From Candidatus Hadarchaeum sp. (GTDB lineage: Archaea > Hadarchaeota > Hadarchaeia > Hadarchaeales > Hadarchaeaceae), in assembly GCF_038871235.1 (NCBI RefSeq), contig NZ_JAVZIN010000001.1, forward strand, positions 32,001-96,000: a DNA stretch of 64,000 nucleotides, given 5' to 3'. The position numbers and the translations under genes were made by a program. Positions 8,021 to 52,838 of the stretch are shown piece after piece. The first letter of the stretch is position 1. Every line of letters begins with the position of its first letter. Below the pieces are notes generated by a model that saw nothing but the letters and a program-made list of their open reading frames with translations, was not told the DNA's origin and did not search any database.

Positions 8021-8112
8021 TTACCCTGTATAAGGTAATTCAAAAATAGGAAAAATCGGTGCTCATGAAAGAAAAATACCCTTAAAGAGTGTTAAAATTA
8101 CCCACCATAAGG
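8021..8112. promoter_or_regulatory. Two copies of TTACCC-N3-ATAAGG upstream of the 8158 gene; candidate operator
   Basis: TTACCCTGTATAAGG at 8021-8035 and TTACCCACCATAAGG at 8098-8112; the second abuts a TATA-like CTTAAATA. Confidence 0.45.
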
Positions 8113-47537: not shown

Positions 47538-50252
47538 GTTTATACTATCGTTTGAAGCTACTGAAACCACGCAGTGCTGAAATAGGGCAAGAAAGGGGGA
47601 TTTTTAGCGCCCGCTGCTGGCTGCGATTTTGGGATCTCACCAGTGTGGACATTCGAGTTCTGCCTTTTCACAGACCAAGCTTTCTGAACACATAGTACTT
47701 TGGGAAATCGATGGCTAACGTGAACGCGGCAGAGAATACCAAGACAAAAGCAACCTCCAGTGCCGTGACGGGCGGGATGATTAATCCATACACGCCCAAC
47801 AGCGCAAATCCAGCTGTTGCACCGATGCTGGAAATGAGAAGCTCCCTGCCGGGTCTTGAGTGCCAGAAGTGCCCTCTTTCTCTCACGATGTAAACTCTGA
47901 ACACACTTGTGAACACGAGAGCCAACATAACAAGGGTCTGTAGAGCGGCCGGCGGCAAGCGGAAATAACTCGTGCCGACAAACACAATTATGCCACCTTC
48001 TATTACGAGTAAGAGCCCAACCAAAAGAGACGCTAGGAAGATGTTCTTAACATTCCACAGATTCGGGCTGATCGTGCTCTTGGAGTTGTCCGTCGCAAGC
48101 GACATCGTCACGAAGTCGTTTGCGAATATCAGCAAAACCATGCCCAATGCGGTGAGCAAAAAATCGTGTAACCAGAAGAAGCCCAAGACCAGCAATCCTA
48201 TGAATTGAATCACCTTGCTGATCTTGTTCAGCACCCACGTGAGCATGCGCTGGTAGATCTGCCTGCTGGTCTTTGTCGCGTCGATTATTCCTTTCATTCC
48301 CGGTTCGGTCAGGACTATGCTCGACGAGACCTTTGCCACGTCGGTAGAGTTGCTCACCGCTATGCCGACTTCGGCCTGCTTCAATGCGGGGGAATCGTTC
48401 ACACCGTCGCCGGTCATCCCGACAACGTAGCCTTTGGATTGCAGGAGCCTGACGATTCTATACTTGTCCTCGGGATATATCTCAGCGAAGCCATCGTATT
48501 CCTCTATGATTTTTGACTGCTCTTCTTCACTTAGTCCTCTCAGATCAGGCATTCGGACGATCTTGTCCCCAATGGAAACCTGCCGAGCTACCTCCTTGGC
48601 TATCGCGATGTTATCCCCGGTCAGCATCTTCACCGCTATGCCTAGCCCTTTTAGCTCCTCTATGATTTCTTTTGAATCGGGCCTTGGAGGGTCGGCCAGC
48701 GGCAGCAGACCCACGAGCTGAAGATTGTCGAAGTCGGCTCCTCGGGACCTAGCTACCGCTAGAGTTCTGTAACCCTTTGAAGACAACTCAAGCACGAGTG
48801 GATCAATTTTACTGCAGGACTCTGGATCCGTCTCTTGACATAGTGATGCTATCACTTGCGGGGCACCCTTGACCACTTTGAAGCGATGCCCTTCATGTTC
48901 GACTATCGCCTCCGATCTCTTCGTTGTCGGGTCAAAAGGCGTGAACGAAATCTGCTTGTATCTGGTCATCTCGGCGCCAACAGATTTTGCGTGCTCGATG
49001 ACGGTGATGTCTATGAGGTCTCCAGTTTCAGCTCTGGATGCCAGGCTTGCCATGAGCGCAACGTCATCTTTCTTGAATTCCGAGAAAGGCATGCAATCGA
49101 AAACTGATAGCTTGTTCTGAGTGATTGTCCCCGTTTTGTCCAGGCACAGTACCTCCATGGATGCCGCGTCTTCGATTGAACTAAGCTTGGTCACGAGGAT
49201 CTTCTTCTTTGATAGTTCAATTGCGCCCGCCGCGAGGACCACCGCGAAAACGGCCGGCAACGCCACCGGGACCGCTCCCATCAGGAAAACTAATGTGAAT
49301 GTCAGTATCATCATAATGTCTGTATGCAATAGGGCAGCGTACGCGACAACTAGAATCAGCGCAGCCACGCCGACGTACATGCTGTACTTTACGACGGCCA
49401 TCATTACTTGCTGCTGATGGGACTTGGGCCCGGCTGTCCTCACTAGTTCTGCGGTCCTGCCAAAGTACGTTTTCGCTCCGGTGGCGATTACGACGCACTT
49501 CGCGTCCCCACTTTTTACTATGGAGCTGGAGTATACGATGTCGGACTTGCGAGCCTTTACTGGTAGAGATTCCCCAGTAAGGGCTGATTGATCCAGAGTA
49601 ACTTCATCATCGCTTATTATTTTGGCGTCAGCTGGCACCAAGTCGCCGAGACCAATGGCGATTACGTCCCCAGGGACTAGCTCCCTTGCAGGGATTGTCA
49701 CTAACTTACCATCTCGCATGACTTTTGCCTTGACCGCTAACCGCTGCTTCAACAGTTCCAGCGCTTTTCGAGAACTGCGAGAATGCCAGAATCCTATCAA
49801 CGCGTTTATCGTGAGCAGCGAGAATATCACCAAGAACTCGAGATAATGAGCAGAAATGTACGAAAGCACCATAGCAAATTCCAATAGCCAAGGCATAGGT
49901 CCCCAGTAGCGAGACAGAAAGTCCAAGGCGGGGCTTCTCTCCTTTTCCATCACCTCGTTGAATCCGAATTTGTTTAACCTTTCATTGGCCTGGGCACCGG
50001 TGAGGCCGTTAGCCGAAGTCTCTAATAGGCGTATTGTTTCTTCGACGGAGATGCTCTTGAAATCGGATGTTCCTGTGGGTTTCAAGAAATCATGCCCCCC
50101 ACTTTTTGTATTTCACCTGAAGAAGCCTTTGCAAAAGTTTGTCATAAAGCATTCGACTTCTAAAAATAGCCGTTGAGGCAAGGAATTACATGACTTTGCC
50201 TAAAATCTGCCTAAATCTTGCTCAGTTGGTCGTTGAAGAATGGTGCGGGGGA
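47522..50252. mobile_element. Putative integrated segment carrying the H+-ATPase gene, bounded by a 12-bp direct repeat of the tRNA-Leu 3' end
   Basis: TGGTGCGGGGGA at 47522-47533 and 50241-50252; no integrase inside. Confidence 0.5.
47668..50085 (-). CDS. Plasma-membrane-type proton-efflux P-type ATPase (P3A)
   Basis: WGPMPW, TGES, PVALP, DKTGT, KGAP, DPPR, TGD and GDGVND. Confidence 0.93.
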   Translation of the reverse strand: MKPTGTSDFKSISVEETIRLLETSANGLTGAQANERLNKFGFNEVMEKERSPALDFLSRYWGPMPWLLEFAMVLSYISAHYLEFLVIFSLLTINALIGFWHSRSSRKALELLKQRLAVKAKVMRDGKLVTIPARELVPGDVIAIGLGDLVPADAKIISDDEVTLDQSALTGESLPVKARKSDIVYSSSIVKSGDAKCVVIATGAKTYFGRTAELVRTAGPKSHQQQVMMAVVKYSMYVGVAALILVVAYAALLHTDIMMILTFTLVFLMGAVPVALPAVFAVVLAAGAIELSKKKILVTKLSSIEDAASMEVLCLDKTGTITQNKLSVFDCMPFSEFKKDDVALMASLASRAETGDLIDITVIEHAKSVGAEMTRYKQISFTPFDPTTKRSEAIVEHEGHRFKVVKGAPQVIASLCQETDPESCSKIDPLVLELSSKGYRTLAVARSRGADFDNLQLVGLLPLADPPRPDSKEIIEELKGLGIAVKMLTGDNIAIAKEVARQVSIGDKIVRMPDLRGLSEEEQSKIIEEYDGFAEIYPEDKYRIVRLLQSKGYVVGMTGDGVNDSPALKQAEVGIAVSNSTDVAKVSSSIVLTEPGMKGIIDATKTSRQIYQRMLTWVLNKISKVIQFIGLLVLGFFWLHDFLLTALGMVLLIFANDFVTMSLATDNSKSTISPNLWNVKNIFLASLLVGLLLVIEGGIIVFVGTSYFRLPPAALQTLVMLALVFTSVFRVYIVRERGHFWHSRPGRELLISSIGATAGFALLGVYGLIIPPVTALEVAFVLVFSAAFTLAIDFPKYYVFRKLGL

Positions 50253-50348
50253 GGGGATTTGAACCCCCGAACTCCTTCGAGACCAGCCCCTCAAGCTGGC
50301 GCCTTAGGCCGGCTTTTGAGACCATTGACCTGGCTAGGCTACCCCCGC
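50241..50348 (-). tRNA. tRNA-Leu(GAG) with a 20-nt intron at 21/22 (50305-50324)
   Basis: GCGGGGG/CCCCCGC acceptor stem, CCAGC-TTGAGGG-GCTGG arm, long variable arm, CCA; removing the BHB-like insert gives an 88-nt tRNA. Confidence 0.93.
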
Positions 50349-50381
50349 GCCAGCAGAATTATCGCGTTTGCCTTTTAAAAA

Positions 50382-51170
50382 TCAGAGCTTTTTGACCAGC
50401 TTGGGGAACTCCTCAAACTTCGCCTGAAGGGATTCAACCGCCTTAAGTATTATCTGGTCCGGTGGCAGTGTTCCCGTTGACTCAACTCTGAAGATGAACT
50501 TGGTCGGGTCACCTGAAACCTTAACCGCCTTGGAGTGACAGGCCTCCGCGCAGGTCTTGCACATGGTACACTGGGTCAAATCCTTAACCCGAACCTTTCT
50601 TTCCTCGATTTCGAGAATGTCCTTTGGACAGGCCTTGACGCAGTCGCCACAGGCATTGCAGAGTTTGGGATCAAACTCAAGCACCGGCATGTACTTGTAA
50701 GCCACGATTCCGGGTTGCCACTTGGCATGTTCCTTACCAAGACCTAGACGAGCGATAGCCACTAGCTCCAGCCTCTGCCCACTCTCCAGCCTCACTATCG
50801 GAATAGAACTATTGACTGGCCTTACTTCCTCATCCGATGGGTTAAGTGAACCGCTGTAAACCATGCCGGGGCCCTCTGCTTTGAGTTCGAGTTCCGCGGA
50901 ACACTTCTCACAACGCCCCTCGCGACAACCGCACTCGCTGGGCAACACATAGCCCTTAGGTGGGGTGGTAAGCGGCACCATGGCGAGTCGGTGGGCAATG
51001 ATCTCGTCGTACATTGCGGAATCATTCACCTTGAACTCCACCTCGTCGACCGCCATGATCGGCACATCGCGCAAGGCTGCTCTACGGACGGAGTTGGCAA
51101 AGGCCGGGGTCGCGTTTGAGAGCATGAACTCCATTTCGTCCCCGTCGAGTTTTCTGATTTCTATCTGCAT
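50382..51170 (-). CDS. rpoD: Archaeal RNA polymerase subunit D (Rpo3) with ferredoxin-like Fe-S domain
   Basis: FANSVRRA, DEIIAHRLAMVPL, GKEHAKWQP and two CxxCxxCxxxC motifs; start moved to ATG 51170. Confidence 0.96.
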   Translation of the reverse strand: MQIEIRKLDGDEMEFMLSNATPAFANSVRRAALRDVPIMAVDEVEFKVNDSAMYDEIIAHRLAMVPLTTPPKGYVLPSECGCREGRCEKCSAELELKAEGPGMVYSGSLNPSDEEVRPVNSSIPIVRLESGQRLELVAIARLGLGKEHAKWQPGIVAYKYMPVLEFDPKLCNACGDCVKACPKDILEIEERKVRVKDLTQCTMCKTCAEACHSKAVKVSGDPTKFIFRVESTGTLPPDQIILKAVESLQAKFEEFPKLVKKL

Positions 51171-51284
51171 ACCGACACCAAAATCGTCCTTCAAGATGTT
51201 GTGTTCAGCTTAAATATTGCTTTCGGTGGGGTTTAAAAACACACACCAGGGCCATGAGACGGTAAATCGGGCCCTGGGTCAAAA

Positions 51285-51383
51285 TGGCGCCCTTCGGCAG
51301 AGCTATTGCTCCTTGGCCGGGATTTGAACCCGGGGCGGAGCCTCGACAGGGCTCCATGTTAGACCGGGCTACACCACCAGGGC
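51285..51383 (-). tRNA. tRNA-Asp(GTC) with a 21-nt intron at 68/69 in the acceptor stem (51293-51313)
   Basis: GAGCC-CTGTCGA-GGCTC arm; BHB excision restores GCCCTGG/CCAGGGC plus G73 and CCA. Confidence 0.9.
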
Positions 51384-51536
51384 CCAAACTCACTAAATAA
51401 TGTCTCGGTTTAAGACGCTTATGTCAGGTAGAGGTCCGCGGAAGTAAATACCCAACCAGCTGGCCCGCGCTCTTTTGGTGCTAAACTCACGAGTAACTCA
51501 CCATATGGTAAACCTTGACAAAAGAACTAAAATCAA

Positions 51537-51660
51537 CGGTTGGCAGCGAACCGGGCTTCCCTTTGGCTTGCGCACAAAAGTACAACCCGATACGCAGGCG
51601 AGCTTGACTTCCGGGATCTGACGAGACCGGGTATTTCCTCGCCGCTATGGCCGCCAACCG
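51537..51660 (-). rRNA. rrf: 5S rRNA, not linked to 16S/23S
   Basis: CGGTTGGCGGCCATAGCGG...CCCGG...GAAGTCAAGC...GTACT...GGGAA...CGCTGCCAACCG with complementary termini, about 124 nt. Confidence 0.92.
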
Positions 51661-51696
51661 AAATTATTGTTGTCCACTCAGTTTTAAAAGCTTGTG

Positions 51697-51833
51697 TGGT
51701 CCCGCGGGGGAGAGTTTCAGCGGCTTAATCCGCGTTTGAACTCCCGACATTTACCGGAATCCTCTAGATTCTGTCGGTTTCAGCGCGGTTTGGGTCTACA
51801 GCCGACCACTCTACCAGGCTGAGTTACCGCGGG
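51697..51833 (-). tRNA. tRNA-Tyr(GTA) with three introns: 37/38 (51779-51795), 43/44 (51751-51772), 59/60 (51714-51734)
   Basis: C1-G72 acceptor stem CCCGCGG/CCGCGGG-A-CCA; removing 17+22+21 nt gives a canonical 77-nt cloverleaf. Confidence 0.9.
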
Positions 51834-51941
51834 ACCGTTTAAGAATCTGGAATCTCCGTTATTAAGGTTTAACCTCTGCACTTACGAGTCTCATCTTCAG
51901 AAAAGATTGGTTTATAAAGTAGTGAGGAGACCTCATAGACG

Positions 51942-52838
51942 ATGTCAACCGAATTGGCCCAAAAAGGAGACGCTGCGCGGCGCAGGTTTTTCAAACCCAT
52001 GATCGCTGTTCTGATGGTCGTCGTGATTCTTCTGGTGACCGCCCCATCGATTGCCCAAGCTAAATCAAAGAGCACTGCTGCGGTAAAAGTTTATCAAGAA
52101 CGTGATGGCGTAACTAGGTTCGAGGAATATACCCCGCTCTCATCCCAACTGGGCGTTCCACCAGGATTTTTCTACAAGGCCAATGTTTACGCTGTTAACT
52201 TCAAGGGAGGAATTGTTTTAATCGATTGCGGCGCCGAGGATCTTTACTCCGATCTCATGGTGGCAATCAACAAAAAGTTACCCAGTAGACCAATTCTAGC
52301 CGTGCTGCTGACGCATGGACATGCCGATCATGCCGGAGCCGGACACTATTTCATAGACGCTGGAATCCCAGTTTACGCGTCCTTCGCGGATTCATATCTG
52401 ATTCAGATGGGGATGAACTTCCCGGGAGTGCCGATCGACTTTACCTATACTGGCTACACGCCGACCCAGCTGCTCTATGGAGGCGAACATCTTTTTGGTC
52501 TAAACGTGATCCCGACTCCCGGGCACACTTATGGATGTCTAAGTTTTCTGGAAGTGGAAACTAAATTACTTTTCAGCGGCGATGTCACGATATCCTATCC
52601 GGGTGACGATGTGGCACCTGAGGACATGACTTTTGAACTCGAATACATGACCTTGCAAGCAACCGATGACACAAGTTTGGAGATGCAGTTGAATTCTCTC
52701 AACTTACTTCTTGAGCTAACGGGCGACAGGCAAGTCAAAGCGATTATGCCGGGCCACAACCAAACTTATTACGGCAAACACGTCGTTGATTACCTTAAGA
52801 ACTCAATTGAAATGGTATCACAAGAGCTGGCCAATTAA
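51942..52838 (+). CDS. Secreted MBL-fold metallo-hydrolase with probable Tat signal
   Basis: RRRFFK, hydrophobic stretch and AQA cleavage site; THGHADH, PGHT, SGD and PGH. Confidence 0.85.
   Translation: MSTELAQKGDAARRRFFKPMIAVLMVVVILLVTAPSIAQAKSKSTAAVKVYQERDGVTRFEEYTPLSSQLGVPPGFFYKANVYAVNFKGGIVLIDCGAEDLYSDLMVAINKKLPSRPILAVLLTHGHADHAGAGHYFIDAGIPVYASFADSYLIQMGMNFPGVPIDFTYTGYTPTQLLYGGEHLFGLNVIPTPGHTYGCLSFLEVETKLLFSGDVTISYPGDDVAPEDMTFELEYMTLQATDDTSLEMQLNSLNLLLELTGDRQVKAIMPGHNQTYYGKHVVDYLKNSIEMVSQELAN

Follow-up and report, generated by a model that had tools for sequence, protein, structure and literature searches.

A Hadarchaeota tRNA-Asp gene with a predicted bulge-helix-bulge intron at position 68/69 and a linked trailer copy of its acceptor strand

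In the sections of a 2014 review on which we draw, non-canonical introns of archaeal tRNA genes are placed at positions from 20/21 to 59/60, among others, with position 3/4 in Thermoproteales as the extreme case (PMC4090602). A few intervening sequences in the acceptor stem are described in a 2026 preprint on Asgard tRNAs (10.64898/2026.10.13.758758), and the account of tRNAscan-SE 2.0, in the passage cited here, states that candidates are extended by 60 nt so that introns close to either end can be detected (PMC8450103). For Hadesarchaea, the excerpted text of Kaneta et al. (2018) reports disrupted tRNA genes together with an α4-type EndA, the broad specificity of which is ascribed to an ‘L3’ loop (PMC5829648). 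As far as these portions of the literature go, introns of the acceptor stem have been published as a class, and Hadesarchaea have already been reported to have disrupted tRNA genes. The preliminary description of the locus analyzed here had raised the possibility that its acceptor-stem site was new, a suggestion that fails for the class; as to the exact position, we found no mention of 68/69 in the passages on archaeal tRNA introns considered here. No paper combining Hadarchaeota names with tRNA intron terms was among the matches listed. What may be new are the linked trailer strand and a 3′-end module that is either wholly present or wholly absent.

The locus lies in the window, the 64,000-nt stretch of DNA that we analyzed, which comes from a hot-spring Hadarchaeota archaeon. 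Judged against the portions of the review cited above (PMC4090602), the intron predicted here resembles known non-canonical introns in being short (18–22 nt in the genomes studied), in having a 3-4-3 bulge-helix-bulge (BHB) motif made up in part of exon bases, in occupying a position unrelated to the anticodon loop, in being patchily distributed among close relatives and in being removed, presumably, by EndA and RtcB. It differs from them in interrupting the 3′ strand of the acceptor stem, which leaves a last exon of 8 nt. Unlike crenarchaea with an (αβ)2 enzyme, the host has a single α-type EndA. It belongs to the same lineage as the Hadesarchaea of Kaneta et al. and shares their single-subunit type of EndA, as described in the excerpted text (PMC5829648), and at least 17 of its 32 full-length Rfam tRNA matches are overlong. 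With regard to the ‘L3’-loop explanation given in that text, the EndA found here is without a large insertion relative to the enzyme of M. jannaschii.

The tRNA-Asp gene and its predicted intron

When the gene is read straight through on the minus strand, the 5′ acceptor strand GCCCUGG faces CCAAGGA. ARAGORN nevertheless called an unspliced tRNA-Asp(gtc) at 51308–51383, and the Rfam tRNA model matched 51309–51383 with 40.9 bits, flagging the non-standard acceptor pairs 1:72 and 4:69. The mismatched stem that had been noticed at first sight is thus borne out by Rfam, whereas the expectation that tRNA finders would take the gene for a pseudogene is not: both programs returned a regular tRNA-Asp, the 3′ end of which is wrong and contains mismatches. 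This is a warning for annotation, since the two finders are in common use. Excision of 51293–51313 (AGGAGCAATAGCTCTGCCGAA, 21 nt) leaves ...CCCGGCCA joined to GGGCGCCA, and on this spliced sequence ARAGORN recognized a 78-nt tRNA-Asp in which all seven acceptor pairs (7/7) are formed. The spliced form has a perfect 7-bp acceptor stem, the anticodon GTC, the discriminator G73 and CCA. G73 is an identity element of tRNA-Asp, and it is present only in the spliced form. The coordinates of the gene and of the elements discussed below are collected in Table 1.

Table 1. Features of the tRNA-Asp locus (window coordinates); cuts, helices and bulges are predicted
Feature	Position	Strand	Remarks
5′ exon, tRNA-Asp(GUC), Sprinzl 1–68	51314..51383	-	70 nt owing to extra D-loop bases; ends ...CCCGG-CCA
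BHB intron, 21 nt, between 68 and 69	51293..51313	-	A-GGAGC-AATA-GCTCT-GCCG-AA
3′ exon, G69–C72 + G73 + encoded CCA (GGGCGCCA), 8 nt	51285..51292	-	joined to the 5′ exon gives CCAGGGCGCCA
Central helix H, 5′ strand, C63 G64 G65 C66	51316..51319	-	three T-stem bases and C66, with which the 3′ acceptor strand starts
Central helix H, 3′ strand, intron GCCG	51295..51298	-	4 bp with C63–C66
Inner helix h′, GGAGC/GCTCT, with AATA loop	51299..51312	-	covariation in relatives
5′ bulge, C67 A68 / A (intron base 1)	51313..51315	-	cut after A68 predicted from the established EndA rule
3′ bulge, A A / G69	51292..51294	-	cut before G69 predicted from the established EndA rule
Outer helix h, 5′ strand, C61 C62	51320..51321	-	pairs with G70 G71 (51290–51291); 2 bp
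Spare 3′ acceptor strand in the trailer, CCAGGGCCC	51269..51277	-	7 nt after CCA; perfect complement of leader GG + acceptor 1–7
Leader bases −1 to −3 (UGG)	51384..51386	-	lengthen the pairing with the trailer strand

The minus-strand string CC-CGGC-CAA-GGAGC-AATA-GCTCT-GCCG-AAG-GG, from which an intron had originally been proposed, is present exactly as claimed. It forms a 3-4-3 motif with a CGGC/GCCG helix and the bulges CAA and AAG, and a scanner for the strict hBHBh′ motif (G-U allowed, flanking helices of at least 2 and at least 3 bp, lengths 11–60) recovered exactly the predicted pair of cuts, with an outer helix of 2 bp and an inner helix of 5 bp. Since the same strict motif occurs 18,544 times in 2.41 Mb (both strands), or about 1.5e-4 per specified cut-site pair, it is common in this genome and by itself weak evidence for an intron. 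One would not expect, by chance, to find a motif at the single pair of cuts that restores the stem and uncovers G73 and CCA. Comparison with relatives provides far stronger evidence than the motif. Because A68 has the same identity as the last intron base, a cut at 67/68 would give the same product in this genome; in relatives whose intron ends in ...GAT (GAU), 68/69 alone gives the right product.

We conclude that, very probably, this is a functional single-copy tRNA-Asp(GUC) gene interrupted by a 21-nt BHB intron at 68/69, within the 3′ acceptor strand. Its cleavage, ligation and order of processing, as well as the oligomeric state of EndA, are matters that we infer from sequence; a search for sequencing runs containing 49500–52500 of the window as RNA yielded none. 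In the proposed precursor, C63–C66 would pair with the intron bases GCCG to form a 4-bp central helix flanked by two 3-nt bulges, C67-A68-A and A-A-G69, with a 5-bp hairpin as the inner helix and C61C62/G70G71 as a minimal outer helix. EndA, of a single α type, would cut once in each bulge, and RtcB would join A68 to G69, yielding a tRNA in which all 7 bp of the acceptor stem are formed and which carries G73 and the CCA encoded in the gene. Were this so, an essential tRNA with a single gene copy could be interrupted by an intron eight bases before it ends.

Genes for both enzymes were found in the genome. A 179-aa frame (G000:C10:38604-39152, minus strand) containing PF02778 and PF01974 is the single EndA gene; a phmmer search against the full set of 9,964 ORFs (minimum length 50 aa) revealed no paralogue at E < 1, in a genome of which about 5% is missing and with a reach from which a very divergent β subunit could escape. 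Residues 15–179 aligned by phmmer with the homotetrameric M. jannaschii enzyme (1a79), with 165 versus 163 aligned residues and no large insertion, while the closest match was the fused EndA of M. kandleri (5x89). The α-type enzyme is probably a homotetramer. RtcB is encoded at G000:C2:119502-120809 (601.7 bits). The interrupted tRNA-Asp gene adds to the heavily interrupted tRNA genes of Hadarchaeota, a lineage with a single α-type EndA gene.

Whether the gene has a substitute elsewhere bears on how the mismatched form is to be read. The genome assembly (1.205 Mb in 16 contigs, 94.75% complete, 0.88% contaminated), to which 51285–51383 belongs, contains 34 tRNA genes according to Rfam and 36 according to ARAGORN, with a single tRNA-Asp in both sets, namely the minus-strand tRNA-Asp(GUC) described here. 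BLAST with this gene matched otherwise only two tRNA-Glu genes and a tRNA-His gene. The check that had been recommended therefore gave no other tRNA-Asp in the available DNA, a 16-contig draft lacking about 5%, by Rfam, ARAGORN or BLAST. One could still suppose that the gene is used straight through, as a decaying or tolerated tRNA gene that ends at 51309, carries C4-A69 and G1-A72 mismatches and is followed by an unrelated trailer hairpin; the unspliced form does score above threshold in both ARAGORN and Rfam. Such a gene would be the only tRNA-Asp found in the genome and would encode no CCA, against 23 of the 32 other full-length tRNA matches that do. Moreover, what this reading takes for a trailer shows conservation and covariation across 17 genomes, and the product of excision exactly matches intron-less orthologues. 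We regard this reading as highly improbable. A tRNA pseudogene was also considered and rejected, as no intact second tRNA-Asp was found and the insert and the 3′ exon are conserved in 17 genomes.

Occurrence and structure of the intron in Hadarchaeota

We scanned 66 Hadarchaeota genomes for the intron form, defined as TTCAAATCCCGRCCA followed by 12–40 nt and GGGCGCC, and used the backward pattern as a control. An insert at the 68/69 site was present in 17/66 genomes, all from one family and spread over seven genera, and the control gave 0 matches in the 66 genomes. By genus, the insert was borne by 5/7 genomes of g1 plus the genome described here, 4/6 of g9, 1/2 of g5, 1/1 of g6, 2/14 of g8, 1/1 of g4 and 2/2 of g11. 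The uninterrupted sequence TTCAAATCCCGRCCAGGGCG was found in 31/66 genomes, and in other families every match was of this kind (f2, 6/6; f5, 3/3; f4, 1/9; f6, 1/1). No genome (0/66) had both forms; the remaining 18/66, many of them incomplete, had neither pattern. The 31 genomes encode without interruption the same 3′ end that splicing would give here, CCAGGGCG, so the predicted product is exactly what intron-less relatives encode, and the 5′ exon is identical or near-identical to the relatives' orthologues. The inserts are 18–22 nt long and all end in G(C/U)CGA(A/U) before GGGCGCCA, and some are identical between genera (G067 = G010 = G017; G068 = G015).

The 17 intron-bearing sequences (15 distinct) were aligned from the T stem to CCA and scored on the proposed BHB structure. 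In this alignment, 98.8% of the BHB cells were paired, compared with 90.2% in column shuffles, none of which (0/500) reached 98.8%; when the partners were slid against each other, only 28–58% of the cells were paired. Changes on both sides were observed at 4/5 pairs of the inner helix (GGAGC/GCUCU, GGAG/CUCC, AGGCA/UGCCU, GGGG/CCCC), and the central 4-bp helix was paired in 100% of cells in the 15 distinct sequences, with two G-U. The 2-bp outer helix is invariant, so that the comparison neither supports nor refutes it. Taken together with the scanner's cut pair, the presence of the insert in 17/66 genomes and the covarying inner helix uphold the original proposal of a strict 21-nt BHB intron at 68/69 with an 8-nt 3′ exon, just as the seven ARAGORN acceptor pairs and the match to intron-less orthologues uphold the claim that splicing restores the stem.

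In the unconstrained minimum free energy (MFE) structure of the 99-nt gene, both the central and the inner helix were present. Nearest-neighbour energies at 37 °C were −28.9 kcal/mol for a cloverleaf from which the intron projects as a side hairpin, −26.8 kcal/mol for a fold in which the BHB central helix is stacked on acceptor pairs 1–4/69–72, and −19.0 kcal/mol for the BHB with its 2-bp outer helix. At 70 °C the first two came to −7.4 and −7.6 kcal/mol, respectively. Among these hand-built folds, the BHB fold at 37 °C was less stable than the cloverleaf with hairpin by 2.1 kcal/mol without the trailer and by 3.5 kcal/mol with it. The modelled energies suggest that the BHB fold is accessible, yet not dominant among the hand-built folds. 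Since the central helix takes up C63–G65 of the T stem, the BHB and the cloverleaf are mutually exclusive, and the native T arm and acceptor stem can be reached only once the intron has been spliced. The splice motif borrows T-stem bases, and the precursor accordingly needs a fold other than the cloverleaf before it is cut. It is plausible that the ends of the tRNA are processed later than splicing takes place.

Several further irregularities were observed in tRNA-Asp genes of the phylum. Many of them contain a distinct D-loop insert of about 30 nt, with a 5′ part of 80–83 rather than 52 nt, at loci L016 (G004), L030 (G005), L115 (G003), L087 (G067), L098 (G035), L104, L108 and L124–L128. This insert occurs together with the 68/69 intron in G004, G067 and G035, and by itself in G005 and G003, both from the genus of the window. 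At L097 (G024:C33, about 8037–8067) the tRNA-Asp match is interrupted immediately ahead of the T loop, by some 29 nt, and the 5′ context of the T stem differs; the G024 gene probably carries a further T-arm intron besides the one at 68/69. Finally, G021 contains a second, 5′-truncated 3′ half of tRNA-Asp, from the anticodon arm to CCAGGGCG (L022/L110; G021:C54:8769-8788), about 1.2 kb downstream of its intact intron-less gene. Integration of an element for which the tRNA served as attachment site may have left this footprint.

A second 3′ acceptor strand in the trailer

Downstream of the encoded CCA, the trailer contains a spare copy of the 3′ acceptor strand (Table 1). A copy was found in all 15 distinct intron-bearing tRNA-Asp genes (that of the window, at 51269–51277, and L002–L009, L012, L016, L018, L081, L087 and L088). 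To each gene we assigned a duplex score, defined as the best pairing of leader bases −3 to −1 plus acceptor bases 1–7 with the 40-nt trailer, and a z value relative to shuffled trailers. The mean duplex energy was −18.4 kcal/mol (mean z −3.7) in the 15 distinct intron-bearing genes, compared with −9.2 kcal/mol (z −1.1) in 29 intron-less genes. In each of three genera with both gene forms, the mean was stronger for intron-bearing genes, with ranges that overlap in g8. Among the 33 tRNA genes of the host genome, tRNA-Asp was the sole outlier (−22.0, z −5.6), the next gene reaching −11.1 (z −1.2).

Within the genus, the 9-nt trailer strand is identical in 6/6 intron-bearing genomes, the spacer before it is 67% identical and the 25 nt after it are 30% identical. 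Conservation of the strand amid diverged flanks is a signature of selection. In MFE structures that included leader and trailer, at both 37 and 70 °C, the 5′ acceptor strand and the leader had the trailer strand as their partner, and the central and inner helices of the BHB were formed at the same time. These results can be read as a refinement of the intron explanation, in which the trailer copy acts in cis as a helper: by engaging both leader and 5′ acceptor strand, it would keep the latter apart and free positions 61–72 for the BHB. The duplex energies of the two gene forms, their order within all three mixed genera, the outlying position of tRNA-Asp in its genome, the within-genus identity and the MFE pairing alongside the BHB helices all speak for such a role. 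On the other side, leader–trailer covariation was absent, with 82.5% of cells paired versus 82.4% after shuffling and 1 double change, in an unfitted alignment of 12/15 sequences from which three genes with the copy 25–27 nt downstream were left out; the pairing thus rests on conservation. In addition, four T's directly follow CCA in this genome and could end some transcripts ahead of the trailer strand, weaker complementarity is also found in several intron-less genes, and a trailer helix of 9–10 bp would need to be displaced or trimmed after splicing. A helper role in cis is, in our estimation, quite possible without being probable. The idea is concrete and testable, and it would account for the splicing of introns that lie in acceptor stems.

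CCA is encoded in 17/17 intron-bearing genes. Since an encoded CCA is frequent in the host genome, CCA alone is not special; in the three genera with both forms, it was encoded in 12/12 intron-bearing and 0/13 intron-less genes. The intron is invariably accompanied by an encoded CCA, a YNUGAAY-like spacer and the spare strand, and from this co-occurrence in the sequences the four appear to act as a single unit. The same linkage would be left if the spare strand were a relic, the intron having arrived with a replacement 3′ end (CCA, intron, GGGCGCCA and spacer) that was inserted before the old acceptor strand, now decaying; the distribution of CCA in the mixed genera and the identical introns shared across genera agree with such an origin. 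Against it, the base that follows the copy is never G73, and the perfect conservation of the copy within the genus next to randomized flanks points to selection. There is also no homing endonuclease or extra gene beside tRNA-Asp, and a gene for RNA polymerase subunit D (about 264–283 aa) lies downstream of both gene forms in the genus. We consider a mere relic rather unlikely. Origin as a relic and a present function are compatible, and the within-genus conservation favours function.

Two other interpretations were rejected. If the trailer copy formed the acceptor stem of the mature tRNA, the intron would measure 39 nt and lie at 65/66, and its removal would give C73 and no CCA; the copy is, moreover, imperfect outside the genus. 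A mobile cassette was discarded because no homing endonuclease adjoins the gene and the downstream gene order is shared by intron-bearing and intron-less genes of the genus. No further copy of the intron was found in the genome.

Returning to a functional trailer strand, we tentatively propose a 3′-end module of four pieces, namely the intron, the CCA-encoding 3′ exon, the spacer and the trailer copy. As a possible mode of action, the copy in cis would serve as a stand-in partner for the 5′ strand and the leader, so that positions 61–72 could abandon the cloverleaf and offer the BHB to the single-subunit EndA. If this proposal were true, the all-or-none presence of the module within genera would point to an exchange of the entire gene end as the way in which tRNA introns are gained and lost. 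Within genera, the strict linkage of the intron with CCA and the spare strand bears on how BHB introns enter and leave tRNA genes.

Farther downstream of the spare strand, at 51226–51248 (minus strand), GGCCCTGGTG repeats the 5′ start of the tRNA; this repeat is absent from the other members of the genus. With the spare strand as partner it could fold into a hairpin of 8 bp (CCAGGGCC...GGCCCTGG), followed by a T-run/TTTTTAAA that probably represents the promoter of the gene for RNA polymerase subunit D (50382–51194, minus strand).

The host genome and its other tRNA genes

The placement of the host agrees with its EndA protein, which is 88–90% identical to that of metagenome-assembled genomes named Hadesarchaea and Candidatus Hadarchaeum. 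The neighbours of tRNA-Asp encode RNA polymerase subunit D, a P-type ATPase, a protein with a metallo-β-lactamase fold, a CoA-binding protein and PAC2. Upstream of tRNA-Asp, at a distance of 154 nt, the same strand carries a 5S rRNA gene (51538–51658, minus strand; Rfam, 93.6 bits), so that the order on the minus strand is 5S, tRNA-Asp, rpoD and tRNA-Leu.

The overlong Rfam matches counted above, which exceed the uninterrupted length, suggest that more than half of the tRNA genes in this genome with one single-subunit EndA are interrupted, several of them at non-canonical sites that the strict motif did not settle. The strict BHB motif resolved only part of the interrupted tRNAs, and a relaxed motif led to ambiguous, contradictory solutions. 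One example is tRNA-Leu(GAG) (50244–50348, minus strand; Rfam, 47 bits), the D loop of which has a 28-nt insertion. It was overlooked by plain ARAGORN and miscalled as tRNA-Trp by ARAGORN in intron mode, and a relaxed BHB search suggested, ambiguously, a 22-nt intron after gene base 23. Another tRNA match (G000:C1:117238-117354, minus strand) covers only positions 9–63 of the Rfam model. It is a candidate tRNA-Asn(GTT) gene with a 16-nt strict-BHB intron after base 8 and a 60-nt canonical intron, a solution that is again ambiguous; if this reading is true, the genome contains a further intron at the junction of the acceptor stem and the D arm.
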